Assembly: GCA_003452965.1 (NCBI GenBank)
Contig: DMMW01000035.1
Coordinates: 534 to 58,047 of the forward strand
From: Elusimicrobiota bacterium
GTDB lineage: Bacteria; Elusimicrobiota; UBA8919
Direction of reading: 5' to 3'
DNA length: 57,514 nt
The notes below the pieces were generated by a model that did not search any database, was not told the DNA's origin, and saw only the letters and a program-made list of their open reading frames with translations. This document shows positions 20,868-44,488 of the stretch, in pieces. Numbering within the stretch: the first letter of the stretch is position 1; each line of letters opens with the position of its first letter. The position numbers were made by a program, and so were the translations under genes.

Positions 20868-20877
20868 GGTGGTTAAA

Positions 20878-22494: not shown

Positions 22495-23814
<1,320 letters not shown>

Positions 23815-26131: not shown

Positions 26132-26718
26132 GCGATAAAATAAAAATTGAATATAGCATAGTGATGAATTGGATAAAAGATGAATCATCCATTTTGGATC
26201 TTGGGTGTGGGGATGGTGAACTATTATCATTACTTGTTCAACAGAAAAAAGTAAGGGCACAGGGAATAGAATTAGATGAACAAGCGATTTATAAATGTGT
26301 TGAACGTGGAATAAGTGTTTTCCATGAGGACTTGGATAATGGACTTAAGGGGTATGCAGATAAATCATTTGATTATGTGGTTTTGTATCAGAGTTTGCAG
26401 CAAATAAAAAAACCGGATATAATATTACGAGATGCTATAAATGTCGGTAGAAAAGTAATAGTAGGTATACCGAATTTTGCATATTATAAAGCACGGGCAC
26501 AAATATTCTTTAAAGGGATAGTTCCGGTTACAACTTCATTGCCCTATGAATGGTATAATACTCCAAATCTCCATTTTTTGAGCATCTCTGATTTTATTAA
26601 TTACTGCAAAAACAAAGGTTTTAAAATAGAGAAGTCTATTTTTATAGGAGAAAAAAGCATAATAAAAATATTTCCAAATTTATTTGCACTAACAGGTATA
26701 TTTTTAATTTCCAAGTAA
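26128..26718 (+). CDS. metW: methionine biosynthesis protein MetW
   Basis: ATGA overlap with metX. The SAM-MTase-like motif is [12 protein letters not shown]. 196 aa and adjacent to metX, as is usual. Confidence 0.85.
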
Positions 26719-28490: not shown

Positions 28491-28894
28491 TTTTGAGTAA
28501 AAAACAAATAAATTATATCATTGAACATGTAAAAAGAGAATATCCAAAGGAAGCATGTGGTATAATCGTAGGGACAAACTGCAAAATTAAAAAAATATAT
28601 AGAATGAAAAACATATCTGAAAAGCCGGAAATTTGCTATTTTATGGATATTAAAGAACAATTCAAAATATTTAAAAGAATAAGGAATCAAAGCTTAGAAC
28701 TTTTAGGCATTTACCATTCGCATACTCACAGTGAAGCGTATCCATCTTCACGTGATGTTGAAATGGCGTATTATGATAATGTAATTTATCTAATAGTATC
28801 TCTATCTAATTATGCAAAACCAAACATTAATGCTTATAAAATACGTTATGGTAAAATTAAAAAAGAACAAATAGAAGTCAGGGAGGTTTTATGA
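28487..28894 (+). CDS. JAMM/MPN+ metallopeptidase (Mec/HcyD/QbsD-like)
   Basis: The catalytic set is complete: the EACG Glu plus HSHTHSEAYPSSRD, which fits H-x-H-x7-S-x2-D. ATGA overlaps on both sides. Confidence 0.8.
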   Translation: MILSKKQINYIIEHVKREYPKEACGIIVGTNCKIKKIYRMKNISEKPEICYFMDIKEQFKIFKRIRNQSLELLGIYHSHTHSEAYPSSRDVEMAYYDNVIYLIVSLSNYAKPNINAYKIRYGKIKKEQIEVREVL

Positions 28895-29616
28895 AAAAAG
28901 TGTTTTTAATGATGTTTATCATCATTGGTACGGCAAAATTCAGTTATTGTGATTTTCGTTATTATGCATGGACATATCAATTTATGACTATGTTACCGGG
29001 AAAGACAGAGTTAGAGTTATATCACCGAATAGACCAAAATGATTTATCAGTGTCTGAAACAGCAAAATGGAAAAGACAAATCGAAATTGAAACAGGATTA
29101 ACTTCCCGTTGGGATTTTTCTTTTTATATGGTTGATAGTTTTTCAGCAGGAGCTGATGGAAAGGGAAGAATCAAATTTGAAGAGGTAAAACTTCGGACGA
29201 GGTATAAGCTTGCTAATAAAGGAGAGTTTTTTGTTGATCCTATTCTATATCTTGAGTATAAAATCCAAACAGATAGGAGTTATCCTGATAAATGGGAAAC
29301 AAAACTAATATTGGCTAAAGACATCAACGATTTGAATATAGCCATGAATGTTATTCCGGAAGAATATTATAAAACAGCGACAAAAGAAAAGGACTGGAAA
29401 GTAGAATATAGTGCTGGAATAAGTTATCCTATATTAAGTGATATTTTCCGAGCAGGGATAGAAGTTAAGGGTGATTTGAAAGATGATAAGCATTTACTTG
29501 GTCCTACAGTTTCTTTCAAAGGAAAAAGTATTTGGTCTGCTATTGGTTTTGTTTTTGGAGTTAACAAAGAATCTGATGACTTACAAGTACAATCAATAAT
29601 CGGTATAGTTTTTTAA
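28891..29616 (+). CDS. hypothetical outer-membrane beta-barrel protein
   Basis: Signal peptide, alternating hydrophobic beta-strand pattern throughout, and a C-terminal ...IIGIVF with terminal Phe. I recognise no family. Confidence 0.4.
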   Translation: MKKVFLMMFIIIGTAKFSYCDFRYYAWTYQFMTMLPGKTELELYHRIDQNDLSVSETAKWKRQIEIETGLTSRWDFSFYMVDSFSAGADGKGRIKFEEVKLRTRYKLANKGEFFVDPILYLEYKIQTDRSYPDKWETKLILAKDINDLNIAMNVIPEEYYKTATKEKDWKVEYSAGISYPILSDIFRAGIEVKGDLKDDKHLLGPTVSFKGKSIWSAIGFVFGVNKESDDLQVQSIIGIVF

Positions 29617-29636: not shown

Positions 29637-30101
29637 ATGAAATTCTACCCGATATCTTTAAACTTAAAAGATAAAAAAGTTGTAATTATTGGTGGTGGTA
29701 AAATCGCCGAAAGAAAAATAAAAGGATTGGTTAAGTGCGATGCTAAAATTACTTTGGTTAGTCCGAATTTATCAAGAAACTTAGAAACAATAATTAGAAA
29801 ATATAAGATAAAATATTTCAAGAAAAAATATACATCATTTATTATAAAAAATCAGTTTTTGATTTTTGCATGTACATCAGATAATGATGTAAACGAAAAA
29901 ATTTTTAACGATGCTGAAAGGTTAGGAGTGCTGGTCAATGTATGCGATGATACGAAAAAATGCAGATTTATTGTTCCTGCGGTTATTAGAAAAAAGGGAA
30001 TTGTTATTTCTATATCTACGGATGGAAAGCGACCTGCACTTTCAAAAAAATTTAAAGAGGTTTTAAAAAATGAATTTGGAAATTTATGGGATAAATTATA
30101 A
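29637..30101 (+). CDS. sirC: precorrin-2 dehydrogenase / sirohydrochlorin ferrochelatase-like (siroheme synthase N-domain, short form)
   Basis: Rossmann motif VVIIGGGKIAERK and the ISTDGKRPALSKK block, as in the CysG N-domain, SirC and Met8. Only 154 aa. Confidence 0.7.
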   Translation: MKFYPISLNLKDKKVVIIGGGKIAERKIKGLVKCDAKITLVSPNLSRNLETIIRKYKIKYFKKKYTSFIIKNQFLIFACTSDNDVNEKIFNDAERLGVLVNVCDDTKKCRFIVPAVIRKKGIVISISTDGKRPALSKKFKEVLKNEFGNLWDKL

Positions 30102-30993
30102 ATTTTGTGATATAAAAGTAAGAGAAAAACACTATATTGATGCGAGAGAACGATATTTGTTGCTTGATAAATATAAATATAGTGGTTTCATACCTTCTGT
30201 AATAGTTTCAACATGCAATAGGACAGAATATTATTTTGATAAAAGGAATAATATTTATGAAAATATCGGCTTTGAAAATTTGAGTGGTATAGATGCGATA
30301 AGACATCTTTTTCGACTTACAAGCGGGATAGAATCACAAATTATAGGTGAGCCGGAAATATTATCACAGGTTAAACAAGCATATTATAATTCAGCCGAAC
30401 TTGGTATGACAAATGGTTTTTTTAATAAAATTTTTCTAAACGCAATAAAATTAGGTAAATATGTTCGTTCTCAAACAGGAATATCGGAGGGGAATATTTC
30501 TTTTGCAAGTATTATATTTAATAAATCAAGAGAGTTTTTTAAGGATATTTCCAATAAAAATATTTTTATTCTTGGTACCGGGGAAATGACAAAAAAAATT
30601 CTTAAGTATTTTTCTTCTGTAAGAACAAATATGCAAATTGTAAGTGGTAAAAATTATGATAAAGCCATTTTATTAGCAAGTGAGTGCAAAGTATTAATAA
30701 ATAAATTTAGCGAATTTAAAAATATAATAAATACCGCAGATATTATTATAACAGCAACTTCGTCACCACATATTTTGATAAGTGAAATAGATTTAATATA
30801 TGTAAAAAGACCATTATTGATTTTTGATTTATCAGTTCCAAGAAATGTGGATGAAGGAATAAAAAATGGATATGTATATCTCTATAATATTGACGATTTA
30901 AAAAAAATAAGCGAAAATAATCTTAATGAAAGAATTAAATATATTCCAGTTATTAAAGAGATTATTGAAAATGAAATCAATAAATTATTATAA
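30070..30993 (+). CDS. hemA: glutamyl-tRNA reductase (lacks the C-terminal dimerisation domain)
   Basis: Catalytic STCNRTEYYF, GESQI-like GIESQIIGEPEIL and NADPH motif LGTGEM. 307 aa versus a typical ~420 aa. Confidence 0.85.
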   Translation: MNLEIYGINYKFCDIKVREKHYIDARERYLLLDKYKYSGFIPSVIVSTCNRTEYYFDKRNNIYENIGFENLSGIDAIRHLFRLTSGIESQIIGEPEILSQVKQAYYNSAELGMTNGFFNKIFLNAIKLGKYVRSQTGISEGNISFASIIFNKSREFFKDISNKNIFILGTGEMTKKILKYFSSVRTNMQIVSGKNYDKAILLASECKVLINKFSEFKNIINTADIIITATSSPHILISEIDLIYVKRPLLIFDLSVPRNVDEGIKNGYVYLYNIDDLKKISENNLNERIKYIPVIKEIIENEINKLL

Positions 30994-31648
30994 AGAAATA
31001 AAAATTGGTGTCAGACCCTCTAATTTAGCAGTAAGACAAGCAGAAGAAATAATTGCTAAGTTAGAATTATTAGGTTTTGAGCGAGCAAGGTTTACAATAA
31101 AAAAATATCACACCGATGGCGATTTAGATAAAGAAACATCTATTTCAAAAATTGAAAGAAGTAATTTCTTTACCAATACGGTTGATAAAGCGGTTTTATC
31201 AGGAGATGTTGATTTTGGGGTTCATAGTGCTAAGGACTTACCGGATATTATTCCGAATGGTCTAAGGATTGCTTGTATAACAAAATCAATAAATAGACAT
31301 GATGCCCTTGTTTCAAGAGATAACTTAAAACTTGCAGAGTTACCGCTATATTCAAAAATAGGGGCAAGTAGCACACGTAGAAAAGAACAATTAAAAAAAT
31401 TCAGAAGTGATTTTGAAATAGTTGATATTCGTGGTAACATTGAAGAACGATTGGAGAAATTTGAAAAAAATAAATTAGATGGATTAATTGTTGCGACTTG
31501 TGCACTTGTAAGATTAGGACTTGTGGATAGAATAACTGCAGAAATTCCGTTTAATATTTTAGAACCGCATCCGTTGCAAGGTTCATTGGCTATTATTGTT
31601 AGAGAGGATAATTATGAATTTGCTGAAAAATTCAAAAAAATCAATTAA
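30971..31648 (+). CDS. hemC: hydroxymethylbilane synthase-like (domains 1-2 only)
   Basis: Contains VHSAKDLP, SSTRRKEQL and IRGNIEERL, which are substrate/cofactor-binding residues of HemC. It ends where E. coli HemC domain 3 would begin. The start is chosen at ATG 30971. Confidence 0.75.
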   Translation: MKSINYYKEIKIGVRPSNLAVRQAEEIIAKLELLGFERARFTIKKYHTDGDLDKETSISKIERSNFFTNTVDKAVLSGDVDFGVHSAKDLPDIIPNGLRIACITKSINRHDALVSRDNLKLAELPLYSKIGASSTRRKEQLKKFRSDFEIVDIRGNIEERLEKFEKNKLDGLIVATCALVRLGLVDRITAEIPFNILEPHPLQGSLAIIVREDNYEFAEKFKKIN

Positions 31649-32381
31649 ACATAAAGTTTATATTATTGGTGCAGGGCCCGGAGATACGGAACTTATTACA
31701 TTAAAGGGTATAAATGTCTTAAAAAAGGCCGAATGTGTAATTTACGATTACCTGGTTAATAAAGATATTTTGGAATATGTTCCAATAACTACAGAATTGA
31801 TAAATGCTGATAAAGCAAGAAACAGATATTTAGATAATTTTACGAAAGAACAGGATAAATTGAATGATTTAATTGTTCAAAAGGCAAAGGAATACAGAAC
31901 AGTTGTACGTCTTAAAAATGGCGATCCGACAATCTTTGGACGATTGAACGAAGAAATACAGTCACTTATTAAAAATAAAATTGATTTTGAAATTATTCCT
32001 GGTGTGACAACTGCTTCATCTGCTGCATCATTTTTAAAAATAGGACTGACTAAAACAAAAGTAGCGCCGATTGTTTCATTTATTGCTGGGCATGAAAATC
32101 CACTATCTAAAAATTCTATAATTGATTTTAGTAAATTATCTCAAAAATCAACACTTGTATTTTATATGGCTGTAGAAAATCTTAATAACATAGCAGAAAA
32201 GTTAATTGGAGAAGGATGGGAAAAAGATACTCCTTTTGCAATTGTAGAAAGTGTAGGATTCAATTACGAAAAGAAACATATAGGTAAATTAAAAAATATT
32301 AAAAAAATATCTAATGGTATTAAACCGCCTGCGGTATTATTGATAGGGGATGTGATAAATTATGCTATTAAGAAAAAATGA
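31614..32381 (+). CDS. cobA: uroporphyrinogen-III C-methyltransferase (SUMT)
   Basis: VYIIGAGPGDTELITLKG and VVRLKNGDP. The track start TTG 31596 is replaced by ATG 31614, which has AGAGAGGA upstream. Confidence 0.9.
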   Translation: MNLLKNSKKSIKHKVYIIGAGPGDTELITLKGINVLKKAECVIYDYLVNKDILEYVPITTELINADKARNRYLDNFTKEQDKLNDLIVQKAKEYRTVVRLKNGDPTIFGRLNEEIQSLIKNKIDFEIIPGVTTASSAASFLKIGLTKTKVAPIVSFIAGHENPLSKNSIIDFSKLSQKSTLVFYMAVENLNNIAEKLIGEGWEKDTPFAIVESVGFNYEKKHIGKLKNIKKISNGIKPPAVLLIGDVINYAIKKK

Positions 32382-33312
32382 AACTATAAGAAAGATGATT
32401 AGTGAAACACAACTTAAAGTTGAAAATCTAATTATGCCATTTTTTGTAACAGAGGGTATAAATATAAAAAAACCAATAAAATGTTTTCCGAAAATTTTTC
32501 ACTTGTCAATTGATAATCTGTTAAAAGAAATTGAAGAAATCGATAAACTTAATATTCCTGCGATTTTGATTTTTGGTGTTTCGGGTAAAAAGGATAAAAT
32601 AGGTTCTTATTCATGGAGTAAAAGTGGAATAGTTCAAAAAGCAGTAAAAGAAATAAAACTAAGATTTCCAGAAATTATATTAATCACAGATGTTTGTTTG
32701 TGTGGTTATAAATCTGATGGTCACTGTGGAATATTTAATGGAAGTGAGATTGATATAAATCTGACATTAAAATATTTATCAAAAATTGCTCTGTCACATT
32801 CTGATTATGGTGCTGACTTTGTGGCACCTTCTGCTATGATGGCAGGACAGGTAAAAGCAATAAGAAACGTTCTAAATAAAAATGGTTTTAATAACGTTGG
32901 AATATTGGATTATTCTGCGAAATTTGCCTCAAATTTTTATGGACCATTCAGAGAATCACTTAATAGTAATCCAAAATTCGGTGACAGGAAGATGTATCAA
33001 TTGGATTATAGCAATACAAATGCAGCGTTAAAAAGAATGGAAGAAAGTATTAAAGAAGGGGCTGATATTATAATGATAAAACCGGCTCTTGCATATCTAG
33101 ACATTATTAAAATTGCTAAACAAAAATTTAATGTTCCTATAGCTGCTTACAATGTTAGTGGTGAATATTCTATGGTTAAATTCGGTTCAGAAAAACATAT
33201 TTTCAATGAAAAAAATATAATTCTTGAAATTCTTACGGCGATAAAAAGGGCTGGTGCTGATTTAATAATAACTTATCATGCTAAGGATGTAGCAAGATGG
33301 TTAAAAAAATAA
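32362..33312 (+). CDS. hemB: porphobilinogen synthase (zinc-type)
   Basis: Zn site DVCLCGYKSDGHCG and Schiff-base Lys contexts (MIKPA, and SGEYSM nearby). Confidence 0.9.
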   Translation: MLLRKNETIRKMISETQLKVENLIMPFFVTEGINIKKPIKCFPKIFHLSIDNLLKEIEEIDKLNIPAILIFGVSGKKDKIGSYSWSKSGIVQKAVKEIKLRFPEIILITDVCLCGYKSDGHCGIFNGSEIDINLTLKYLSKIALSHSDYGADFVAPSAMMAGQVKAIRNVLNKNGFNNVGILDYSAKFASNFYGPFRESLNSNPKFGDRKMYQLDYSNTNAALKRMEESIKEGADIIMIKPALAYLDIIKIAKQKFNVPIAAYNVSGEYSMVKFGSEKHIFNEKNIILEILTAIKRAGADLIITYHAKDVARWLKK

Positions 33313-34511
33313 AATTGTTAAAAGAAATAAAAAAATATTTCTCAGGTGATGTAAATTCACCGGTAAGAAGTTTTAAATCGGTGGGTATGACCCCTATTAT
33401 TATAAAATCTGGAAGTGGTTCAAAAATTAAGACATATAATAGTAAAACATATATTGATTATTGCATGTCTTGGGGTGCCCTTATATTTGGACATTCAAAT
33501 ACTGACATAATCAGAGCTGTTAGAAATCAGTTAAGTTATGGGACAAGTTATGGTTTTACGAATAATTATGAAGTAGAACTTGCAAAAGAAATAAGCAAAG
33601 CATTACCTTCTGTAGAGAAAATTAGATTTGTAAATTCAGGGACTGAGGCAACAATGGGGGCAGTAAGAGTTGCCAGAAAGTTTACAAGCAGAAATAAAAT
33701 TTTGAAATTTGAAGGTTGTTATCATGGTAGTTCGGACTTATTATTAAGAACTGATAATAGTTTTATAGTTTCTTACAATGATTTAGAATCTGTTGAAAAA
33801 ACCGTTAAAAAACATTATAGAAGTATTGCTGCTGTTATTGTGGAACCGATTGCTGGTAATATGGGGGTTATATTACCAGATAAGAATTTTTTAATGGGTC
33901 TTAGAAATATATGTAACAGATACGAAATAATTTTGATATTTGATGAGGTGATAACTGGTTTTCGTATTCAATACGGTGGTGCACAGATAAAATATAATAT
34001 AAAACCCGATTTGACATGCTTGGGAAAGATTATAGGTGGTGGCTTTCCAGTCGGTGCTTTTGGTGGGAAAAAAGAAATTATGGAACTATTGGCACCATCA
34101 GGAGATTTGTATCAGGCAGGTACTTTTTCCGGAAATCCGATTTCTATGATAGCGGGCTTAAAGACATTACAGAAATTAGAATATGCAGATTACGGACTTA
34201 TAGAAGGTAGAACAGAATATTTATGCGATTTTATAGAAAATGAAGCGAAAAAAAATAGCGTTGATATTCAAATTAATAGAATTGGTTCTATGTTTTCTCT
34301 ATTTTTTATAAATAAAAAAGTTTATGATTATGTATCAGTAAAAAAACAAAATGTTAAAAAATTTAAAAAATTCTATAAATTACTTTTTAATAAAAGCGTA
34401 CTTTTTTCTCCATCACCATTTGAATCAAATTTTATTTCTTTCGCACACACACAAGAAGATATAGAAAAAACTATAAAAATATTTTCTTCTGTTTTGAGGA
34501 GGATTAGATGA
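33297..34511 (+). CDS. hemL: glutamate-1-semialdehyde 2,1-aminomutase
   Basis: Class-III aminotransferase, with NSGTEA, DEVITGFR and PLP-Lys context CLGKIIGGGFP. Confidence 0.9.
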   Translation: MVKKIKLLKEIKKYFSGDVNSPVRSFKSVGMTPIIIKSGSGSKIKTYNSKTYIDYCMSWGALIFGHSNTDIIRAVRNQLSYGTSYGFTNNYEVELAKEISKALPSVEKIRFVNSGTEATMGAVRVARKFTSRNKILKFEGCYHGSSDLLLRTDNSFIVSYNDLESVEKTVKKHYRSIAAVIVEPIAGNMGVILPDKNFLMGLRNICNRYEIILIFDEVITGFRIQYGGAQIKYNIKPDLTCLGKIIGGGFPVGAFGGKKEIMELLAPSGDLYQAGTFSGNPISMIAGLKTLQKLEYADYGLIEGRTEYLCDFIENEAKKNSVDIQINRIGSMFSLFFINKKVYDYVSVKKQNVKKFKKFYKLLFNKSVLFSPSPFESNFISFAHTQEDIEKTIKIFSSVLRRIR

Positions 34512-35431
34512 GTAGTTTCGACAAGTTAGATATAAAAAATAAAAAAGAACAGAAAAAATTAAATGTTGATTTTGCAGAACTTAAATCAGGTGGATTTATT
34601 AAACAAAATAAAAAGGACTTATTTACGGTTCGTTTGCGTGTACCAGGTGGGCGGATGCCTATAGAACGGTTAAACAAAATAATAAAAATCGCCCAAAAAT
34701 ATGGTAAAGCAAATTTCGTTCATTTTACCACCCGCCAATCGCTTGAAATTATTTCTATAAATATAAACGATTTTAATAAATTAAAAAGTGAATTAAAAAA
34801 AATAGGGCAACAAACTGCATCTTGTGGACCAAGAGTACGGGTTGCTACGGGTTGTGGGGGATGCGAATATAATGCAAGGGGTATTATTGATGCACAAAAA
34901 CTTGCATTACAGTCGGATAGGAAGTTTTTTGGAATTCCAACCATTCATGGGAAGTTTAAAATCTCATTTGCCGGCTGTCATTCGGATTGTACCAGGGCAA
35001 AAGGCGCAGATATCGGATTTATTGGCGAAATTGAACCGGGATGGAGTGAAAGAAAATGTATAGGTTGTGGATTATGTGCCAAAGCATGTTTGGAAGGTGC
35101 TATTATATCTGATAAAAAAACGGGAAAACCTGTCTATGATGCTTCAAAATGTATTTTTTGTGGCGATTGTATAAAAATATGTCCGACATCTGCTATGCAC
35201 GAAAAAAAAGTAGGTTGCGGATTATATGTCGGGGGAAAATGGGGGCGTCATCCAAGAATAGCAGATTTGATAACTCATCTTTTTCCTGCAAAAGATATAA
35301 TACCTGTTATCAAGAAAACGATAGATTGGTATATAAAAAATGGTAAAAAAAGAGAACGAATAGGAAATACAATTGATAGATTGGGTATTAAAAAATATAA
35401 AAACGAAATAAATTATAAAAGGAGTTACTAA
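34508..35431 (+). CDS. small siroheme-type sulfite reductase-like protein with inserted 2x[4Fe-4S] ferredoxin domain (AsrC/Dsr-like)
   Basis: NIR_SIR ferredoxin-like N-domain (RLRVPGGRM...L), Cys motifs TGCGGC and AGCHSDC, and two CxxCxxCxxxCP motifs (CIGCGLCAKAC, CIFCGDCIKICP). It sits immediately after the siroheme genes. Confidence 0.6.
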   Translation: MSSFDKLDIKNKKEQKKLNVDFAELKSGGFIKQNKKDLFTVRLRVPGGRMPIERLNKIIKIAQKYGKANFVHFTTRQSLEIISININDFNKLKSELKKIGQQTASCGPRVRVATGCGGCEYNARGIIDAQKLALQSDRKFFGIPTIHGKFKISFAGCHSDCTRAKGADIGFIGEIEPGWSERKCIGCGLCAKACLEGAIISDKKTGKPVYDASKCIFCGDCIKICPTSAMHEKKVGCGLYVGGKWGRHPRIADLITHLFPAKDIIPVIKKTIDWYIKNGKKRERIGNTIDRLGIKKYKNEINYKRSY

Positions 35432-35545
35432 AATATAAATTTCCATTAACGGAAAGAATGAGAAGATTGCTTATAGTTTAGAATTGGTAATGTCAAAAAT
35501 ATGCCAATTTTTGACAGAACGAGTATTTTAAGGGAAAAGAAAGGT

Positions 35546-35938
35546 ATGATTGAAAATTCGTCACCGATAATTAAGATACTACTAAAAATAGTTGGAACTA
35601 TATTTGTGGGACTTGCGATTCTTGGCATATTTCTGCCTCTTTTACCAACAACTCCTTTTCTAATACTTGCTGCTATTTGTTATGCAAAAAGTTCCTCAAA
35701 ACTTTATAACTGGCTCTTGAATAATAAGTATTTAGGAGCTTATATCAGAAATTATTATGAAGGTAAAGGTATACCGCTTGCTACAAAAATCTTAACGATT
35801 ATATTTTTAATATTAACAATAGGTTATACATCAATATTTACAATTTCCGTATGGTGGGCTAGGATATGTTTGTGGCTTATAGCTGTTGGGGTTAGTATCC
35901 ATATTCTCTCTTTCCCAACATTGAAAAATAAAAAATAG
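35546..35938 (+). CDS. DUF454 (YbaN-like) inner-membrane protein
   Basis: [24 protein letters not shown] is the YbaN signature. The start is chosen at ATG 35546. Confidence 0.65.
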
Positions 35939-35948
35939 GAGGCATTTC

Positions 35949-37070
35949 ATGGCAATAAAAATATCTATTAATGGTAAGAGTGAAAAGTTCAAAAATAGAT
36001 TAACAGTTGAAAATTTACTCAAAATTAAAAAGATTAGAAAAGAAGTTGTGACTGTAGAATTAAACAATAAAATAATTTCAAGAGAAAAATATTCTATCGC
36101 AGTTTTAAAAGACGGTGATTTGCTTGAATTTATTTATTATATGGGTGGTGGTGCTTGCAAGAGTATACTTAGTTTAATAGGGAACACGCCTCTCGTAAAG
36201 TTGAATAATATTGTTTCGGAAGATTCTGCCGAGATATTTGCAAAAGTAGAATATTTCAATCCCGGCGGTTCCATAAAAGATAGAATATGTTTGGCTATCA
36301 TTGAAGATGCTGAGAAAAAAGGTAATTTAAAGATAGGCGGAACAATAATTGAGCCAACCAGTGGGAATACCGGAATTGGTTTAGCGATGATTGCTGCTAT
36401 TAAAAAATATAGATGTATTCTTGTAATGCCTGAATCAATGTCATTGGAAAGAATATATATACTGAAATCTTTTGGTGCTGAAGTAATTTTAACATCAGCT
36501 AACAAAGGGATGACAGGTGCAATTAAAAAAGCTGAGGAACTTAATAAAAAAATACCGAATAGTTTTATTCCGCAACAGTTTGATAATCCCGCGAATCCGG
36601 AGATACATAGAAAAACAACCGCAGTAGAGATTTTGTCTCAAACCGAAGGAAAAATAGATGCGTTTGTTGCCGGGGTTGGAACTGGAGGAACGATAACGGG
36701 TGTAGGTGAGGTTTTAAAAGGAAAAAATCCAAATATAAAAATTATTGCAGTTGAGCCTGAAACATCTGCGGTATTATCAGGTCAAAAACCCGGTCCTCAT
36801 AAAATTCAGGGTATAGGTGCCGGATTTATCCCTAAAATACTAAATAGAAAAATATTAGATGAAATAATAACGGTGAGTGACGATAATGCATTCAATACTG
36901 CAAAACTCATGGCAACAAAGGAAGGGCTTTTTGTAGGAATTTCTTCTGGGGCTGCTGTACATGCATCATTATTAGTTGCCAAGAATTTAGGAAAGGGCAA
37001 AAGAGTAGTTACAATACTACCGGATACCGGTGAAAGATATTTCAGTGTTGAACAATATTTTAAAGGATAA
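35949..37070 (+). CDS. ThiS-like ubiquitin-fold sulfur carrier (aa 1-68, ending ...YYMGGG) fused in frame to a cysteine synthase (CysK/CysM, aa 69-373)
   Basis: Strong AGGAGG SD. The N-terminal 68 aa align by eye to B. subtilis-type ThiS, including the terminal GGG. Codons ATG GGT GGT GGT GCT TGC at 36141-36158 continue without a stop into ...[11 protein letters not shown]..., then SIKDR (PLP Lys), TSGNTG and GVGTGGT. Confidence 0.85.
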
Positions 37071-37073
37071 TGT

Positions 37074-37310
37074 ATGGAAAAACAAATTAAAATAGCAAAA
37101 AAATTGGATTTAACAGGTGTTATATGTCCCACTAATTTTGTAAAAACAAAACTTGCTCTGGAAGATTTGAAAAAGGGGCAGATATTGGAGATAATACTTG
37201 ATGATGGTGAACCAATAAGGAATGTGCCGAGAAGTATTAAAGAAGATGGACATAAAATAATAAAAGTTGAAAATATCAAAAACAAATTTAAAATTTTAAT
37301 TAAAAAATGA
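37074..37310 (+). CDS. TusA/SirA-family sulfurtransferase
   Basis: 78 aa. LDLTGVICPTNFVKTKLAL carries the conserved Cys-Pro active-site context. Confidence 0.7.
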   Translation: MEKQIKIAKKLDLTGVICPTNFVKTKLALEDLKKGQILEIILDDGEPIRNVPRSIKEDGHKIIKVENIKNKFKILIKK

Positions 37311-37320
37311 GGTGAATAAT

Positions 37321-38541
37321 ATGTCATTTGCAAAATCATTAAAATGTCGCGAATGCGGTAGGATTTACGAAAAAAAACCTATATATGTTTGTGAATATTG
37401 TTTCGGCCCTTTAGAAGTTGTATATGATTATAAAAAGATTAAGAAAGTGTTAACAAAAGAAAGGATTATAGCCCGTAAAGAAAATCTTTGGAGATACAAA
37501 GAACTTTTACCTGTTGACCATGAACCAACAGTTGGTCTGAACAGTGGTTTTACACCGTTATTTGAGGCAAAAAATTTATCAAAAAAACTTAATTGTAAAA
37601 AAATATTTATTAAAGATGATTCAGTGAATCATCCTACACTTTCATTTAAAGACAGAGTAGTTGCTGTTGCACTCTCAAAAGCCAAAGAATTTGGTTTTAA
37701 AACCGTTGCTTGTGCTTCAACCGGAAACCTTGCCAATTCAGTGAGTAGTCATTCTAAAAGTGCAGGATTCAATTGTTATGTTTTTATTCCTGCAGATCTT
37801 GAAAAAAGCAAGATAATATCTTCTTTAATTTATGGAGTTAATCTTGTGGCAATAGAAGGTAATTACGATGATGTTAATAGATTATGCGGTGAAATTGCGT
37901 CAAAATATAAGTGGGCGTTTGTAAATATAAATTTAAGGCCATATTATGCTGAAGGTTCAAAAACATATGGATTTGAAATTATAGAACAACTTGGCTGGAG
38001 AGCGCCTCAAAATATAATAATACCCGCTGCATCCGGTTCACTTCTTACAAAAGTTTATAAAGGAATAAAAGAATTTGAGCAAATTGGGTTAATAAAAAAA
38101 TCTAACACAAAATTTCATATTGCACAAGCGAGTGGTTGTTCACCAATTGTCACTGCATTTAAAAAGAAATCTGAAATTATAAAACCTATTAAACCAAATA
38201 CAATTGCAAAATCATTAGCGATAGGTAATCCGGCAGATGGTTTCTATGCGATTGATATAATCAGAAAAACTAACGGTTATGGAGAGGTTGCTACAAATGA
38301 TGAAATCGTTGAAGGAATAAAGTTATTAGCCGAGACCGAAGGTATTTTTACAGAAACAGCCGGTGGTGTTGTGGTGGCAGTTTGTAAAAAACTTGTTGAA
38401 CAGAGAAAAATAAAAAGGAACGAAGAAATCGTTATCTCCATAACAGGTAATGGTCTAAAAACGCAAGAAGCTGTTGAAGGTAAAACAAGTAAATTAATAA
38501 AAATAAAGCCCAATATTCAATCATTTGAAAAAATTTTATAG
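37321..38541 (+). CDS. threonine-synthase-like PLP enzyme with N-terminal zinc ribbon (candidate carrier-dependent homocysteine/thio-amino-acid synthase)
   Basis: Zinc ribbon CRECG...CEYC, PLP Lys in HPTLSFKDR, and SGNLA-like STGNLA. The track start GTG 37312 is replaced by ATG 37321, which has GAGGTG upstream. Confidence 0.8.
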   Translation: MSFAKSLKCRECGRIYEKKPIYVCEYCFGPLEVVYDYKKIKKVLTKERIIARKENLWRYKELLPVDHEPTVGLNSGFTPLFEAKNLSKKLNCKKIFIKDDSVNHPTLSFKDRVVAVALSKAKEFGFKTVACASTGNLANSVSSHSKSAGFNCYVFIPADLEKSKIISSLIYGVNLVAIEGNYDDVNRLCGEIASKYKWAFVNINLRPYYAEGSKTYGFEIIEQLGWRAPQNIIIPAASGSLLTKVYKGIKEFEQIGLIKKSNTKFHIAQASGCSPIVTAFKKKSEIIKPIKPNTIAKSLAIGNPADGFYAIDIIRKTNGYGEVATNDEIVEGIKLLAETEGIFTETAGGVVVAVCKKLVEQRKIKRNEEIVISITGNGLKTQEAVEGKTSKLIKIKPNIQSFEKIL

Positions 38542-38554: not shown

Positions 38555-38830
38555 ATGGCTATAAAAGTGAGAATACCAACTCCATTGCAAAAATTGACGG
38601 ATAAAAAAGCAGAAGTAAAATGTTCGGGAAAAACGGTTATTGAATTGATTGCTATTCTGGACAAAAAATATCCCGGTATCAAAGAACGGCTTTGTGATGA
38701 AAAAGGAAATATAAGACGGTTTATCAATATTTTTGTAAATGAACAAGATATAAGATTTTTGAAGGGTAAGAATTCTAAACTCAAAGATGGAGATGATGTA
38801 TCAATAATTCCCGCAATAGCAGGAGGGTAA
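38555..38830 (+). CDS. CysO/MoaD-family sulfur carrier protein ending in free Gly-Gly
   Basis: 91 aa after a GGAGG SD. VRIPTPL...YPGIKERL...RRFINIFVNEQDIRF...DGDDVSIIPAIAGG-stop closely parallels M. tuberculosis CysO. Confidence 0.85.
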   Translation: MAIKVRIPTPLQKLTDKKAEVKCSGKTVIELIAILDKKYPGIKERLCDEKGNIRRFINIFVNEQDIRFLKGKNSKLKDGDDVSIIPAIAGG

Positions 38831-38836: not shown

Positions 38837-39652
38837 ATGTTTAAATTAACTGATGAACAAATTGAAAGATATTCAAGGCAGATAATCCTTCCCGAAATTG
38901 GTGGTAAAGGGCAAGAAAAACTGCTTAAAGCAAAAGTACTTATAATCGGATGTGGTGGACTCGGTTCGCCGTGTGCTTTTTATCTTGTTGCAGCCGGTAT
39001 TGGTAAAATTGGGCTTATAGATAGTGATAATGTTGAATTAAATAATCTACAGAGACAAATATTGCATTCTACAAGGACCGTTGGTATTCCAAAAGTTGAA
39101 TCAGCAAAAGACATACTTTCAAACATTAATCCTAATATTGATATAGTTGTTCATAAATTACGGCTTACTTCAGAAAACATTTTAAGTATTATTAGAAACT
39201 ATGATGTGATAATAGATGGAAGTGATAATTTCCCTACACGGTATCTTGTAAATGATGCTTGTGTTTTGTTAAAAAAACCACTAATTCACGCAGGTATTTT
39301 AAGATTTGACGGTCAGGCGACAACGATTATTCCATATAAAAGTCCTTGTTATAGATGTTTATTTCCAGCACCACCGCCACCGGGGACGGTACCTTCATGT
39401 CAGGAGGCAGGTATATTAGGTGTCGTTGCAGGAACTCTCGGACTTATTCAAGCAACTGAAGCATTGAAATATATTTTATCAGTAGGTGAATTACTAATAG
39501 GAAAATTGCTTATTTTCAATGCTTTGGAAATGAGTTTTAGAACATTAAAAATACAAAGAGATAAAAAATGTCCGATTTGTGGAAACAAACCTACAATAAA
39601 AAAACTTATTGACTATGAAGAATTTTGCCAACTAAGAAAGAATAAAACATAA
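38837..39652 (+). CDS. ThiF/MoeB/HesA-family E1-like adenylyltransferase (no rhodanese domain)
   Basis: RYSRQI, the GCGGLG nucleotide loop and two CxxC pairs (CYRC, CPIC). 271 aa. Confidence 0.85.
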   Translation: MFKLTDEQIERYSRQIILPEIGGKGQEKLLKAKVLIIGCGGLGSPCAFYLVAAGIGKIGLIDSDNVELNNLQRQILHSTRTVGIPKVESAKDILSNINPNIDIVVHKLRLTSENILSIIRNYDVIIDGSDNFPTRYLVNDACVLLKKPLIHAGILRFDGQATTIIPYKSPCYRCLFPAPPPPGTVPSCQEAGILGVVAGTLGLIQATEALKYILSVGELLIGKLLIFNALEMSFRTLKIQRDKKCPICGNKPTIKKLIDYEEFCQLRKNKT

Positions 39653-39936: not shown

Positions 39937-41604
39937 ATGATTATTCTATTAATAATATTACTTTTTGTGCCGGTCTCTTTTGCTGAGGAAATACCAACCA
40001 TATCAATTTCAATAGAAAAAGAAATGATTTCTAATAATAATGTAGTTATTAAACCTGATAAAGTTTCCAATTCATTAAATCAATCACTATTAAACAACAA
40101 TATTGATATACAAAGAAATACGGTGCATCCGAATATTTCTCTGAAAGGCTCCACTTTTCAACAATCATCTATCTATATAGATGGTGTTAAAATAGATGAT
40201 CCGCAGACAGCACACCACAATATGAATATACCGGTAACAATTAATGATATAGAAAGAATAGAAATTTTAAATAACAAGGGCTTATCAGGTGCATTGAATA
40301 TTATTACAAAAAAACCTGATGATGCAATAATTGCAGAAATTTCAGTAGGTGATTATGCTAATAAAAACGGAAAGGTCACAGCATCACGCAAATGGAAAAA
40401 TATAGCTAATAGGCTATCGATAGAAAAAAATATTTCAGAAGGTTACTCATTCGATACTGATTTTGATATAACAAATATTTTTAATCAATTTGAATGGTCT
40501 TTAAATAATTTGGCAACAGGTCTTTCTTTCGGTTATTTAAAAAAGGACTTTGGAGCAAAAGGTTTTTATGCTAATTTCCCTTCCTATGAATGGACTGAAA
40601 CATATTTTTCAAAAGTTTATTTAAATTATATGTATCACAGTTTTAATATTAAACCGGAATTTCAATGGAGAGGAAATAAGGATGAATTCGAATTGGATAT
40701 AACAAAACCGGGTTGGTCTTTCAACGAACATAGAACAGATGTTTATACTTCCCAATTAGAAATTTCTAAGAATAATTATACAGGTGGTACAAGTATTTCT
40801 AAAGAAAAAATAGATAGTTCAAACCTCGGTAATCATTCAAGAGATATTTATGGGTTATGGAGTAATTATAAACATATATTCTCAGGGAAAATTAATACAA
40901 CTGCAGGATTACAACTTGATAAATATTCTAATTATTCAGTTCTATCACCCTCAATATATGCCGAATATTACCAATTAGAAAAAATAAAAATTCATTCTAT
41001 TTACAGAAAATCTGTGAGGCAACCATCATTTACTGAGCTTTATTATAACGACAAAGCGAATGTTGGGAATCCTAATTTGGATTTTGAAAAAGCAACTTTG
41101 TATGAAATGGGTATTAATTATAATTATTTTATATTAAATCTTTTTGTGCGTGATGAAAAAGATATTATTGATTGGATAAAACAAAATCAAGCAGATGCGC
41201 AATGGTTAGCAACAAATATCGGTAAGGCAAAATTTTATGGATATGAAATAGGCTCTACAAAGGATTTTAATAAGATATCAATATCTTTAAAATATCAATT
41301 TACTAATTCCTCAAAGGATGCAGATTTTATATCAAAGTATGCTTTGCGTTATACAAATCACATATTAACTTCAGCGGTTTCATATTCATTGCCTTTAAAT
41401 ATTAAACATCAGGTATCCGGGCTTTATAAGAAGAGAATATCCGGCGAAGAATATTTTGTATTAGACACTAAATTTACTAAAGATTTTTCAATAGGTGAGT
41501 ATTTTGTAAAAATAGATAATATACTGAATAGAGAATACTTTGAAATACCATTTGTTGAAATGCCTCCAAGAATCATTTATGCAGGTCTGAATTTTCACAT
41601 ATAA
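39937..41604 (+). CDS. small TonB-dependent receptor (candidate thiamine/precursor uptake)
   Basis: AGGAGG SD and a signal peptide. The plug motif is ISLKGSTFQQSSIYIDGVKIDDP and the C-terminal region has a beta-barrel pattern. It lies directly downstream of the TPP riboswitch. Confidence 0.75.
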   Translation: MIILLIILLFVPVSFAEEIPTISISIEKEMISNNNVVIKPDKVSNSLNQSLLNNNIDIQRNTVHPNISLKGSTFQQSSIYIDGVKIDDPQTAHHNMNIPVTINDIERIEILNNKGLSGALNIITKKPDDAIIAEISVGDYANKNGKVTASRKWKNIANRLSIEKNISEGYSFDTDFDITNIFNQFEWSLNNLATGLSFGYLKKDFGAKGFYANFPSYEWTETYFSKVYLNYMYHSFNIKPEFQWRGNKDEFELDITKPGWSFNEHRTDVYTSQLEISKNNYTGGTSISKEKIDSSNLGNHSRDIYGLWSNYKHIFSGKINTTAGLQLDKYSNYSVLSPSIYAEYYQLEKIKIHSIYRKSVRQPSFTELYYNDKANVGNPNLDFEKATLYEMGINYNYFILNLFVRDEKDIIDWIKQNQADAQWLATNIGKAKFYGYEIGSTKDFNKISISLKYQFTNSSKDADFISKYALRYTNHILTSAVSYSLPLNIKHQVSGLYKKRISGEEYFVLDTKFTKDFSIGEYFVKIDNILNREYFEIPFVEMPPRIIYAGLNFHI

Positions 41605-41979: not shown

Positions 41980-42537
41980 ATGGAAGACAAAGACATTATA
42001 TTAAAAATAAAATCCGGTGATAAATCTGCTTTTAATGAGATATTAGATAAATATGAAAAACCGCTTATAAATTACTTGTATAAATTCTTAAATTCACAAC
42101 AAGATGCCGAAGATATTGCACAATTAACATTTATAAAGATATATAATTTAATAGAAAAATTTAAGCCAACCGATAATTTTTCTTCGTATTTATACAAAGT
42201 AGCAACAAATTTGGCATTAAATTTACAAAGAAGAAAAAAAATAATAAAAATATTTTCATTGGACTGGACACAGCATACCGAAAAAGATGATATTCCAAAT
42301 CAACATCCTGACTTAAAACAAAAGGATTCACAACAGATACTTGAAGAAAAAGAAACCGTAAAAAAAGTAAAAAAAGCAATTTCCGAATTACCACCTTTAC
42401 AAAAATCAGCATTAATTTTATCATTTTATGAGAACAAGTCGTATCAAGAAATTTCAAAAATTCTAAAAAAAAGTATTTCTTCCATAGAATCACTCATATT
42501 CCGAGCAAAATCAAACCTTTCAAAGAAATTAAGATAA
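41980..42537 (+). CDS. ECF-subfamily sigma-70 factor
   Basis: 185 aa. Region 2 is DAEDIAQLTFIKIY and region 4 is the HTH YQEISKILKKSISSIESLIFRAK. Confidence 0.85.
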   Translation: MEDKDIILKIKSGDKSAFNEILDKYEKPLINYLYKFLNSQQDAEDIAQLTFIKIYNLIEKFKPTDNFSSYLYKVATNLALNLQRRKKIIKIFSLDWTQHTEKDDIPNQHPDLKQKDSQQILEEKETVKKVKKAISELPPLQKSALILSFYENKSYQEISKILKKSISSIESLIFRAKSNLSKKLR

Positions 42538-42683: not shown

Positions 42684-42840
42684 TATTTATTTAATTTTTT
42701 ACCGCAAGTTTTTTTGATTTCAAGTGTTTATAATAGTAGAAGTATGGAGTAAAATAAATATGACCGCTTACGCGTTGATTCGCCATTCGCCAACTGGTGA
42801 AGGCGGACAAGAAATCGTTGGTGGGGAAGGAGGATATGAA

Positions 42841-43419
42841 ATGAGATTATTTTTAGTTTTTGTTTTTACGTTGATTTTAGGACTTAATATGGTTTATGGC
42901 GGTGGCAAAGGGGGACATGAACATCACACAATGAAAGAGGAAAAACAGACAGATACAAAAGTTGGTATTTGTCCGGTTATGGGTGGTGCAGCATCTACAG
43001 AATATTCTTATAATTATAAAGATAAAACATATTATTTTTGTTGTCCTGATTGCATAGAGAAATTTAGTAGTGAGCCTGAGAAATATATATCCAAAATTAA
43101 AGAAATTAAGTTAATGGCATATAAATATGGATTTAAACCCGACCCCATAGTTGTTAAAAAAGATGATATAGTAAGATTCACAATTACTTCAAAGGATGTT
43201 ACCCATGGTGTTTATATAAAGGAATATGGAATTAAAATACGGATTAAAAAGAGTGAGACCAAAAAAGTAGAGTTTATTGCAGATAAAGTTGGAAAATTTG
43301 ATATATCGTGTTCTGTATACTGCGGTTCAGGGCATTCCAAAATGAAAGGAAAATTTATTGTAGAAGAAATAAAAGAAAAAGAAGAAATGGAAGAACACGA
43401 AGAACATGAAAATGAATAA
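42841..43419 (+). CDS. secreted YHS (TRASH) domain + CuA-type cupredoxin domain protein
   Basis: AAGGAGG SD before ATG 42841, so the track's upstream extension is rejected. The YHS domain is CPVMGG...YYFCCPDCIEKF. The cupredoxin carries a full CuA-like ligand spacing, H-x34-C-x3-C-x3-H-x2-M (THG...CSVYCGSGHSKM). His/Glu-rich tail. Confidence 0.7.
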   Translation: MRLFLVFVFTLILGLNMVYGGGKGGHEHHTMKEEKQTDTKVGICPVMGGAASTEYSYNYKDKTYYFCCPDCIEKFSSEPEKYISKIKEIKLMAYKYGFKPDPIVVKKDDIVRFTITSKDVTHGVYIKEYGIKIRIKKSETKKVEFIADKVGKFDISCSVYCGSGHSKMKGKFIVEEIKEKEEMEEHEEHENE

Positions 43420-43816
43420 TATAAATAAATTGCTTGAATCTATCAAGGATATGGAGACATCTAATAACTTTAGAAGTAATTTTTGGCATAAAATTACAAT
43501 ATACGAACAAAATGATATTTTTAATAGAATGCCGATTGTAAGATTTGCAAATGTTTCTTTGGTTGGTTCTTTTGTTGTATTAATTTTTTTAGTATTTTCT
43601 GTTATCTCGCCGATTTTATATAGTCAGGATAATAAAATTAATAAAGAAATTTCACAATTTGTCTTAAAAGCATTTAATCCGTTGAATAATAAGAAAATTT
43701 TTTCATTTTCAAATTTTATAAACTATTGTGATGAATATTGCAAAGTAATGTGTGGCTATTGTGAAGGTGATGATATGGAATGTGAAATGAGCGGGGTTAA
43801 TGGAGAAAAACAATGA
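43406..43816 (+). CDS. hypothetical single-pass membrane protein with Cys-rich C-terminus (candidate anti-sigma/metal sensor)
   Basis: One TM segment (VSLVGSFVVLIFLVFSVISPIL) and a C-terminal YCDEYCKVMCGYCEGDDMECEMSG. It overlaps the neighbouring ORFs. No family recognised. Confidence 0.35.
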   Translation: MKMNNINKLLESIKDMETSNNFRSNFWHKITIYEQNDIFNRMPIVRFANVSLVGSFVVLIFLVFSVISPILYSQDNKINKEISQFVLKAFNPLNNKKIFSFSNFINYCDEYCKVMCGYCEGDDMECEMSGVNGEKQ

Positions 43817-44070
43817 AGTCAAAATTAGCTATTATGAGCTTTGTTTTGGGGTTGATTTCTTTTGTGCAATTATTTGGAATTGAAAAAGCTGTATTAGCAA
43901 TTATTTTTGGAACTATTGCTTTAAAAGAAATTGTGTCAGATCAAAAATTGGCAGGAAAGAATTATGCGTATTCTGCTATAATAATAAGTTCATTGTATAT
44001 TTTGATTGTCATAGTTTTGTTAATAATTAAAGGTCCTGATATGTTAAAGTATATAGGTATGATGAGGTGA
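43813..44070 (+). CDS. small 2-TM membrane protein (DUF4190-like)
   Basis: ATGA overlap with the upstream ORF. The two-helix layout MSFVLGLISF...AIIFGTIALKEI resembles DUF4190. Confidence 0.45.
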   Translation: MKSKLAIMSFVLGLISFVQLFGIEKAVLAIIFGTIALKEIVSDQKLAGKNYAYSAIIISSLYILIVIVLLIIKGPDMLKYIGMMR

Positions 44071-44074
44071 TAAA

Positions 44075-44440
44075 ATGAAAAAGATTGTTGTTTTTTTTAG
44101 TGTGTTTTTGATGATTTGTTTGTTGATTAATCGTGTGGCAGCTATGTCATGTCACGCGGGTAACGGCGGTCATCAACATGAAGAGAAGTCGATAGAAAAA
44201 TCGGAAAAGAAAAAGGTCAAAGTTAAAGGATCTTTTTATTCTAAAATTTATGTCTGCCCGATGCATCCAGAAATAAAAAGCGACAAACCTGGGAAATGCT
44301 CTGAATGTGGGATGAAACTTAAAAAGAAACAAGTTTTAATGACATATACCTGCACAGAAAAGGATTGCGATTATAAACAAGTAAAACCGGGGATTTGCCC
44401 CGAGCATAAAAAGGAATTAGTTAAGAAAATAATTGATTAG
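44075..44440 (+). CDS. secreted heavy-metal-binding-domain (HMBD) protein
   Basis: Signal peptide. YVCPMHPEIKSDKPGKCSECGMKL is the HMBD motif, followed by a second Cys-rich module. Confidence 0.6.
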   Translation: MKKIVVFFSVFLMICLLINRVAAMSCHAGNGGHQHEEKSIEKSEKKKVKVKGSFYSKIYVCPMHPEIKSDKPGKCSECGMKLKKKQVLMTYTCTEKDCDYKQVKPGICPEHKKELVKKIID

Positions 44441-44488
44441 ATGTAAGAAATTATTTTTTTAGCGAGTATTTTAGTATATAATTAAAAT

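Follow-up and report, generated by a model that had tools for sequence, protein, structure and literature searches.

A ThiS-type sulfur carrier fused in frame to a CysK-type cysteine synthase in an Elusimicrobiota sulfur-assimilation cluster, a candidate precursor for JAMM processing

Within a 57,514-nucleotide stretch of Elusimicrobiota contig DMMW01000035.1 (assembly GCA_003452965.1; the whole stretch is called the window below), a single open reading frame (ORF) encodes a ThiS-type ubiquitin-fold sulfur carrier that runs, at its Gly-Gly-Gly terminus, directly into a complete CysK-type cysteine synthase. Both domains are recognised by full-length family models, the junction is invariant among homologues, orthologues exist in which the two parts are separate genes, and the surrounding gene cluster is conserved. 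We propose, with a probability of about two in three, that the product is a two-part precursor, from which a JAMM metallopeptidase of the same cluster would cut after Gly68 to free an HcyS/CysO-like carrier and a cysteine synthase that uses the carrier thiocarboxylate. The features of the fused gene are as follows.

35949-37070, plus strand: ThiS-CysK fusion ORF, 373 aa, read from the sequence
35937-35942, plus strand: Shine-Dalgarno (SD) sequence AGGAGG, 6 nt 5' of the ATG at 35949, read from the sequence
35949-36152, plus strand: ThiS-type beta-grasp sulfur-carrier domain, aa 1-68, ending EFIYYMGGG (TIGR01683, Pfam ThiS, AlphaFold2 model)
36144-36152, plus strand: GGT GGT GGT, encoding Gly66-68, with the predicted JAMM cleavage site after Gly68 (between 36152 and 36153), from invariance, split orthologues and low predicted local distance difference test score (pLDDT)
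36153-37070, plus strand: CysK-type cysteine synthase body, aa 69-373 plus stop (TIGR01139, PALP)

The fused gene, its junction and its spread

An earlier note on this DNA, made from the letters alone, had described a 373-aa ORF behind a strong AGGAGG, with no stop and no SD for an internal start at the junction, and the sequence bears this description out. The codons ATG GGT GGT GGT (36141-36152, Met65-Gly68) continue into GCT TGC AAG without an intervening stop, no purine-rich SD lies upstream of Met65, and inspection of the sequence found no other internal start near the junction, by which an internal start for CysK was rejected. The same note took residues 1-68 for a complete ThiS, and the profiles agree: the thiS equivalog TIGR01683 covers aa 5-68 from end to end (all 64 positions of the profile, 1-64; score 57.2 bits, cutoff 37.45, E 1.6e-15), with Gly66-68 aligned to the C-terminus of the profile, and Pfam ThiS (PF02597) also exceeds its cutoff of 22.5, with 35.2 bits. 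The full-length model match, the predicted beta-grasp fold, the terminal Gly-Gly and a nearby E1 adenylyltransferase place the domain in the ThiS/MoaD family. The nearest solved structure is that of G. metallireducens ThiS (2K5P/3CWI, E 6e-18), a protein with the same terminal FMGGG; the profile search also matched the solved ThiS structures 1TYG and 1F0Z, and its PDB matches to designer PPR proteins were set aside as repeat-driven noise.

Over aa 74-369 the remainder of the protein matches both PALP (273 bits) and TIGR01139, the cysK equivalog model (456 bits, cutoff 351). With its pyridoxal 5'-phosphate (PLP) lysine, the TSGNTG Asn loop and the GTGGT phosphate loop it belongs to the CysK or O-acetylserine sulfhydrylase A (OASS-A) family, and the core motifs named in the note (SIKDR, TSGNTG, GVGTGGT) are all in place: among 99 aligned fusions the SIKDR lysine K110, TSGNTG (137-142) and GTGG (244-247) are invariant, and at least 90% keep G242 and V243. 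Judged by sequence, the fused body is a canonical OASS-A, the family that makes cysteine from O-acetylserine and sulfide, an activity predicted here. Structure prediction, also suggested earlier, was carried out with AlphaFold2 and the 99-sequence alignment, and gave two confidently folded domains (mean pLDDT 86.5). The ThiS part has the order beta-beta-alpha-beta-beta-beta (strands 3-7 and 10-14, helix 20-26, strands 34-38, 41-43 and 58-63), with mean pLDDT values of 79-93 in ten-residue blocks over aa 1-60. The segment MGGGAC (residues 65-70) between the domains is the only one with a pLDDT below 50, and the fusion junction is predicted to be disordered and exposed.

The architecture is common in several candidate phyla and is not a one-off. 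Nineteen contigs, which stem from at least 8 independent samples and assemblers (ENA, JGI, Logan), carry the identical 373-aa protein, always in the same context. When 5.8 billion proteins were searched and the top 120 matches examined, these proved to be ThiS+PALP proteins of 371-403 aa and 67-86% identity, except for one truncated gene call and two longer triple fusions; the fused architecture recurs in more than 115 other clusters at 90% identity. A ThiS-domain profile scan of 185,579 species, one genome per species, found relatives in 184 genomes; loci of at most 20 kb from the best 80 of these, annotated with phmmer by comparing the window's own proteins with stop-to-stop ORFs, underlie all counts out of 80 given below. 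ThiS is fused in frame to CysK in 58 of the 80, and the set includes Omnitrophota, Elusimicrobiota/Endomicrobia, Saganbacteria/Margulisiibacteriota, Firestonebacteria, Zixibacteria, Caldisericota, Sumerlaeota, Dictyoglomaceae, Ratteibacteria and others. The search for the same domain architecture and its phyletic spread, proposed in the note, has thus been answered by more than a hundred diverged clusters in several phyla.

Public annotation conceals the carrier domain. All named entries among the top 120 matches are labelled 'cysteine synthase (A)', a label that hides ThiS, so that pathway-reconstruction tools would miss the carrier. In Elusimicrobia RIFOXYD2_FULL_34_15 (MGVS01000048.1, locus L001:1839-2975, protein P0008), the annotated 'cysteine synthase A' is given 311 aa and begins with the Met of MGGG, though the full ThiS-CysK ORF is intact there.

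M65-G66-G67-G68 is invariant in 99/99 aligned fusions, within the invariant motif (F/Y)(F/Y)MGGG, and the ThiS domain as a whole has a mean column identity of 69%. The residue directly after GGG takes 14 identities among 115 fusions, and between 8 and 23 residues separate GGG from IGxTP, a conserved CysK motif. In its sequence the junction resembles a carrier C-terminus rather than a linker. In 36 of the 115 fusions the first residue after GGG is Met, continuing MPFSDR; the simplest reading is that this Met is a relic of the start codon of a once-separate cysK. As an internal start in use it was rejected, since ThiS would still have no stop.

The same ThiS subtype is a separate gene in 22/80 loci, mostly directly upstream of cysK. 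It ends exactly at GGG-stop in three (L024, L032 and L080) and carries variable tails of 1-24 aa in others, such as GGGN (in Endomicrobia), GGGYAF, GGGELF and GGGEENAK. The DNA of L032 and L024 reads ATG GGA GGG GGA TAG, followed by a short spacer with AAGGAG and the next ATG, which has its own SD. Among 150 diverse representatives of this 'YYMGGG' subfamily, 26 end at Gly-Gly, 56 carry 1-5 extra residues and 44 carry 6-30, and the remainder are CysK or TusA fusions or their fragments; the search, made against 50%-identity representatives, listed one full-length fusion, an undercount that probably reflects the clustering of fusions with the CysK body. Because so few of the representatives end at Gly-Gly, the subfamily would usually be made as a C-terminally capped precursor with processing as the norm, and the CysK fusion appears from these sequences to be the extreme of a continuum of C-terminal extensions. 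Since the primary ThiS-CysK product has no free Gly carboxylate, cleavage would be required for carrier function.

The sulfur-assimilation cluster

The fusion is part of a long same-strand block of sulfur genes. Apart from the fusion itself, which lies between the DUF454 and TusA genes, and a 241-aa ORF that lies between the JAMM gene and the siroheme-like ORFs, the block consists of the following.

21891-22409, plus strand: Rrf2/CymR-like regulator (NCBIfam)
22519-23814, plus strand: MetY homocysteine synthase (NCBIfam)
23900-24832, plus strand: unfused CysK paralogue, 310 aa (TIGR01139, 476 bits)
24962-26131, plus strand: MetX (NCBIfam)
26128-26718, plus strand: MetW, assigned from the translation
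26820-27527, plus strand: PAPS/APS reductase (family matches)
27534-28490, plus strand: CysP-like sulfate permease, directly upstream of the JAMM gene (family matches)
28487-28894, plus strand: JAMM/MPN+ (Prok-JAB) metallopeptidase, candidate processing enzyme (Prok-JAB, 79.9 bits)
29637-34511, plus strand: six contiguous ORFs, putative siroheme/tetrapyrrole genes, assigned from translations and not by family scan
34508-35431, plus strand: small sulfite reductase, NIR_SIR with a 4Fe-4S ferredoxin insert (Pfam, NCBIfam)
35501-35938, plus strand: DUF454 membrane protein, immediately upstream of the fusion (Pfam DUF454, 126.9 bits)
37074-37310, plus strand: TusA-family sulfurtransferase (Pfam TusA, 78.9 bits)
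37321-38541, plus strand: ThrC-like PLP enzyme with an N-terminal zinc ribbon, above thrC cutoffs, start codon according to gene calls
38555-38830, plus strand: second, free MoaD/SAMP-like carrier, 91 aa, ending AIAGG-stop (Pfam ThiS, 59.7 bits; moaD_arch and SAMP1 models)
38837-39652, plus strand: MoeB/ThiF-type E1 adenylyltransferase, 271 aa (Pfam ThiF, 287.7 bits; several MoeB and SAMP-E1 NCBIfam models)

The JAMM gene is intact, as the note had held: its catalytic motif E22...H77-S-H79-x7-S87-x2-D90 is complete and is conserved in 44 homologues from related clusters. The 241-aa ORF (28891-29616) overlaps the JAMM stop codon, has a hydrophobic N-terminus and gave no NCBIfam match. By their translations the six ORFs at 29637-34511 look like siroheme/tetrapyrrole genes that would supply the sulfite reductase cofactor, and their homologues mostly co-cluster in the related loci (the 33297-34511 ORF in 54 and the 32362-33312 ORF in 40 of the 80). 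The DUF454 and ThiS-CysK genes are separated by a stop and 10 nt in the window. No thiG, thiF, thiC or thiH was found among the scanned window ORFs (the related loci were not scanned explicitly for thiG), and the conserved neighbours are sulfate-assimilation and cysteine or methionine genes rather than thiG, thiF, thiH or thiO, by which a thiamine-pathway ThiS was rejected. A scan of the window against Rfam gave no matches, thus no S-adenosylmethionine (SAM) or other riboswitch, and a promoter and terminator scan over 21.5-40.2 kb gave counts at chance level, which do not define transcription units.

Related loci keep the order PAPS reductase, CysP, JAMM, ThiS with CysK, sulfite reductase, TusA, ThrC-like enzyme, MoaD-like carrier and E1, and the JAMM gene is often immediately upstream of the fusion. 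Homologues of JAMM, E1, sulfite reductase and TusA each occur in 17/17 of the fused loci with 6 kb or more of flank on both sides, and the ThrC-like enzyme and second carrier in 16/17. The Zixibacteria locus L068 consists of Rrf2, PAPS reductase, JAMM, ThiS-CysK, sulfite reductase, TusA and E1, followed by unrelated genes (checked with Pfam), so that its fused ThiS would, from the gene content, be the only local substrate for E1 and JAMM; locus L056 has the arrangement CysK, ThiS (ending GGGSPII), E1, JAMM. In nearly all 80 loci ThiS and cysK are either fused or neighbours. Rrf2 is found in 26/80, DUF454 in 2/80 and MetY likewise in 2/80, and MetY was on that count rejected as a conserved ThiS partner of the kind that it is for Wolinella HcyS. 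Sulfite reductase and TusA form one ORF in 23/80 loci (e.g. L015:7645-9936, L026:863-3160 and L032:2649-4973), which hints at direct transfer of reduced sulfur from the reductase to the TusA cysteine.

The second carrier shows the same behaviour at its C-terminus. Fourteen of its homologues end AIAGG-stop, about 20 carry tails of 1-4 residues, and 10 are fused in frame at AIAGG (...IIPAIAGG) to E1 (L008, L025, L026, L038, L041, L046, L052, L061, L073 and L079; e.g. L025:4576-5673). TusA is a recurrent alternative partner, fused to the GGG of the same ThiS subtype in L044:9986-10435 and in proteins P0129, P0147 and P0157, and P0073 and P0077 (514 aa) are DUF454-ThiS-CysK triple fusions. If a Gly-Gly peptidase is always present, loss of a stop codon is costless and repeated capping and fusion of both carriers would be expected; the observed cases would illustrate how a resident peptidase of this kind relaxes selection on stop codons.

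The ThrC-like gene (TIGR00260, 299 bits; NF006050, 305.6 bits against a cutoff of 303) is invariably followed by the MoaD-like carrier and E1. By analogy its product is likely a MetM-type homocysteine synthase, and automatic annotation would probably mis-name it. MetM/MetO is a recently described thiocarboxylate route to homocysteine, and the ThrC-like/MoaD-like pair of the window matches that pathway in its published summary (bioRxiv 10.1101/2024.10.14.618325). The presence of an unfused CysK, and of a second carrier with its ThrC-like partner, means that JAMM and E1 would be shared and that the fused CysK is not the sole cysteine synthase. MetY and the unfused CysK lie at the head of the block, and the organism thus appears able to make cysteine as well as homocysteine in two parallel ways, one sulfide-type and one carrier-type.

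Outside the block, a gene for an AbiEi-like antitoxin (a weak match, 33.7 bits) and a 268-aa ORF just upstream of the sulfur genes (20238-21675) may form a type IV toxin-antitoxin pair. Downstream lie a TonB-dependent receptor (39937-41604), an ECF-type sigma factor (41980-42537) and a copper/heavy-metal efflux region (42724-50405) with cupredoxin/YHS and HMBD proteins, an outer-membrane efflux protein, a CusB-like adaptor and a 1102-aa ORF. Three large ORFs gave no Pfam match at E <= 1e-6, namely 931-2676 (581 aa), 6957-8702 on the minus strand (581 aa) and 17093-18556 (487 aa), the last of which gave no NCBIfam match either.

Proposed processing and alternative explanations

We propose that the clustered JAMM (28487-28894) cuts the 373-aa precursor after Gly68, which would release a 68-aa carrier with a free Gly-Gly-Gly carboxylate and a CysK that starts ACKSIL. 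The freed carrier would be adenylated by the MoeB-type E1 (38837-39652) and would then receive reduced sulfur, from the adjacent sulfite reductase either directly or via TusA, to become a thiocarboxylate. The released CysK would then use the carrier thiocarboxylate as nucleophile on the PLP-aminoacrylate formed from activated serine, and after an S-to-N acyl shift the same JAMM would hydrolyse the carrier-cysteine adduct, freeing cysteine. We infer cleavage, thiocarboxylation and carrier use by CysK by analogy with known carrier systems. The most probable origin of the fusion itself is that adjacent thiS and cysK genes lost the stop codon that separated them; with a standing Gly-Gly-specific peptidase such a loss would be harmless, and the fusion would guarantee 1:1 synthesis of the two partners. 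That the protein is a carrier precursor released at GGG and processed by the clustered JAMM was the central suggestion of the earlier note, and every comparative test that we ran favours it: GGG is invariant beside variable sequence, split orthologues end in GGG-stop or a short tail upstream of cysK, JAMM and E1 accompany all 17 well-flanked fusions, L068 has no other carrier, and the junction is predicted to be disordered.

All 70 ThiS-linked CysKs (53 fused, 17 split) fall in one clade of a neighbour-joining tree, apart from 6 unpartnered paralogues that include the free CysK of the window, which is 60% identical to the fused body; such unpartnered paralogues coexist with ThiS-linked CysKs in several loci as well as in the window. 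Within the clade the split forms lie dispersed among fused forms, which points to repeated fusion or fission. We infer use of the thiocarboxylate by the fused CysK from the fusion, the adjacency and this distinct clade of paralogues, not from a structural feature.

Several points weigh against the proposal. The fused body is near-canonical OASS-A, closest in the PDB to G. kaustophilus CysK (2EGU, 391 bits) and M. tuberculosis CysK1 (2Q3B), and M. tuberculosis CysM is not among its top 60 PDB matches. No convincing active-site signature of the ThiS-linked clade emerged, as its 13 differences from the 6 outgroup sequences are minor and non-catalytic, and the CysK sequence bears no sign of adaptation to a protein thiocarboxylate; the tree was built without support values. 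The second carrier and its ThrC-like partner could by themselves account for JAMM and E1 in most genomes. In the Pfam comparison the E1 has a ThiF domain alone, with no rhodanese domain of the MoeZ type, and the MoeZ model NF005902 was matched over 14-275 of 392 only. No cysE or serine acetyltransferase, a source of activated serine, was found among the scanned window ORFs, and JAMM cleavage after Gly68 is itself deduced from sequence comparison.

In an alternative that we consider unlikely, the precursor is cleaved but the pairing has no mechanistic meaning. ThiS would then serve other acceptors (the ThrC-like enzyme, MetY, thiamine or tRNA thiolation), CysK would be an ordinary sulfide-using O-acetylserine sulfhydrylase, and the fusion would be a neutral by-product of stop-codon loss within an operon that a Gly-Gly peptidase protects. 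The canonical CysK body, as seen in hidden Markov model (HMM) and PDB comparisons with no clear clade-specific active-site change, would fit, as would the fusion of the cluster's carriers to whatever lies downstream (CysK, TusA or E1), the score of the ThiS domain above the thiamine ThiS equivalog cutoff, and the presence in the window of MetY, the partner of HcyS in Wolinella. Against this, ThiS is attached to or beside cysK almost throughout the 80 loci, in which MetY is rare, and the separation of ThiS-linked CysKs from coexisting unpartnered paralogues suggests specialisation. The thiamine genes sought among the scanned window ORFs were not found, and the ThrC-like enzyme has an adjacent carrier of its own.

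A more elaborate arrangement, to which we assign a slightly smaller chance still, would combine a regulated zymogen-like switch with polyprotein-like expression of operons. Uncleaved ThiS would keep the carrier, and perhaps also CysK, inert, and JAMM activity, set by metal, redox or sulfur status, would determine the shift from the sulfide-dependent free CysK to the carrier-bound route, in which the sulfur is protected. A standing Gly-Gly peptidase would let these bacteria run parts of an operon as a polyprotein, setting pathway stoichiometry, with ThiS-CysK, ThiS-TusA, MoaD-E1 and DUF454-ThiS-CysK as examples, and this would be a prokaryotic counterpart of ubiquitin-fusion expression.

It is rather improbable that the protein is never cleaved and that the ThiS-like domain stays on CysK for good, as an N-terminal module that does not act as a carrier but either docks CysK onto E1, sulfite reductase or TusA or regulates or auto-inhibits the enzyme. 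Ubiquitin-like (Ubl) domains with non-carrier roles are known, and a distinct role has been suggested for a Ubl fused to ThiF (Iyer et al. 2006, PMC1779556); the strong overall conservation of the ThiS domain would suit such a module, and a free second carrier is present in most clusters to occupy E1 and JAMM. However, a mere tether would not be expected to keep GGG strictly invariant next to a variable linker, orthologous split genes stop right after GGG, L068 offers E1 and JAMM no other carrier, the junction is predicted to be exposed as well as disordered, and in the DUF454-ThiS-CysK triple fusions a soluble enzyme would be tethered to a membrane protein unless cut.

The possibility that a missing stop codon or an assembly indel merged two genes, a worry raised in the note, has a negligible chance of being right: metagenome assemblies do hold such errors, and some long-tailed split forms (e.g. 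L072 and L074) could themselves be frameshifted fusions, but the identical ORF in independent assemblies, the more than 115 diverged fused clusters and the 58 species genomes with the in-frame fusion answer it indirectly and rule the artefact out.

Comparison with known carrier systems

The closest counterpart in chemistry is the protein-thiocarboxylate route to cysteine in M. tuberculosis, with CysO, CysM, Mec+ and MoeZ, reportedly described by Burns et al. in 2005. In it the carrier thiocarboxylate attacks the aminoacrylate, with an S-to-N acyl shift and release of cysteine by the JAMM. As in that system, a ThiS/MoaD-fold carrier, a PLP synthase, a JAMM and an E1 are clustered in the window, and the proposed chemistry is the same. 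The two differ in that carrier and synthase are here one polypeptide, the carrier is ThiS-like and not CysO-like, and the synthase is of the CysK type and not an O-phosphoserine-specific CysM (cysM models reach 312 on the fusion, below their cutoff of 394). The E1, unlike MoeZ, has no rhodanese part, and separate TusA and sulfite reductase genes are clustered instead. With a CysK-type synthase and a rhodanese-less E1, ThiS-CysK is not a strict member of the M. tuberculosis CysM/MoeZ system. In the survey of Iyer et al. 2006 (PMC1779556), neighbourhoods of the CysO/CysM kind are those of types 4c and 4d.

A second likeness is to Wolinella HcyS and Pseudomonas QbsE, carriers that are made with a C-terminal extension which a JAMM must remove. 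The components are reportedly HcyS-Ala, HcyD, HcyF and MetY in Wolinella and QbsE and QbsD in Pseudomonas, in work said to be that of Krishnamoorthy and Begley (2011) and Godert et al. (2007). The extension is here a whole 305-aa enzyme and not 1-2 residues, and the partner is CysK and not MetY. The resemblance extends to a sulfate-assimilation cluster with PAPS reductase, transporter, sulfite reductase and SirA/TusA (type 4e, PMC1779556), the neighbourhood type under which G. metallireducens is placed together with Wolinella (Iyer et al. 2006, PMC1779556).

The closest counterparts in architecture are M. tuberculosis MoaX, in which cleavage between Gly82 and Ser83 is required for activity (PMC4326299), and DR2607, a MoaD-MoaE fusion of D. 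radiodurans for which the JAMM DR0402 is the cleaving enzyme (PMC8832034). The latter paper also summarises earlier reports in which linear SAMP1 fusions are substrates of HvJAMM1, and in which the P. furiosus JAMM recognises SAMP2 irrespective of what is joined to the C-terminal Gly of SAMP2 (PMC8832034). MoaX and DR2607 share with ThiS-CysK an N-terminal carrier joined at Gly-Gly to the enzyme that consumes the thiocarboxylate, a role that CysK would have here. Cleavage at Gly-Gly has been proven experimentally for the former, with a JAMM as the protease in Deinococcus, whereas ThiS-CysK is known from sequence alone; the product there is molybdopterin and here would be cysteine, and the carrier subfamily and the fold of the partner differ.

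Eukaryotic ubiquitin fusions offer a more distant parallel, with linear beta-grasp fusion, Gly-Gly-specific release and stoichiometric co-production. In UBA52, RPS27A and the polyubiquitin precursors, the beta-grasp protein is made in linear fusion and released by a Gly-Gly-specific peptidase. The peptidases there are of other families, the released protein is a protein modifier and not a sulfur carrier, and the two halves have no metabolic coupling. If cleavage is true, ThiS-CysK would be a simple bacterial analogue of such precursors.

The surveys of Iyer et al. 2006 (PMC1779556) and of the archaea (PMC2948915) list ThiS-ThiG, MoaD-MoaE, sulfite reductase-ThiS and Ubl-ThiF/E1 fusions; ThiS-CysK is absent from the Ubl fusions named in them. 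We found no description of a ThiS-CysK or CysO-CysM fusion in full-text searches of the literature, which did not reach subscription-only papers. The earlier view that no characterised example is known thus holds for the exact ThiS-CysK fusion, but not for the principle of cleaving a carrier-enzyme fusion, for which MoaX and the Deinococcus MoaD-MoaE protein are precedents. ThiS-CysK would accordingly place known chemistry and a known fusion-cleavage principle in a new, widespread and apparently unremarked pathway context. Should the cleavage be true, JAMM-processed carrier-enzyme polyproteins would extend from molybdopterin synthase to amino-acid biosynthesis, and the proposed system would define a widespread module of cysteine and homocysteine assimilation in poorly known phyla such as Omnitrophota, Elusimicrobiota, Margulisiibacteriota, Zixibacteria and others.

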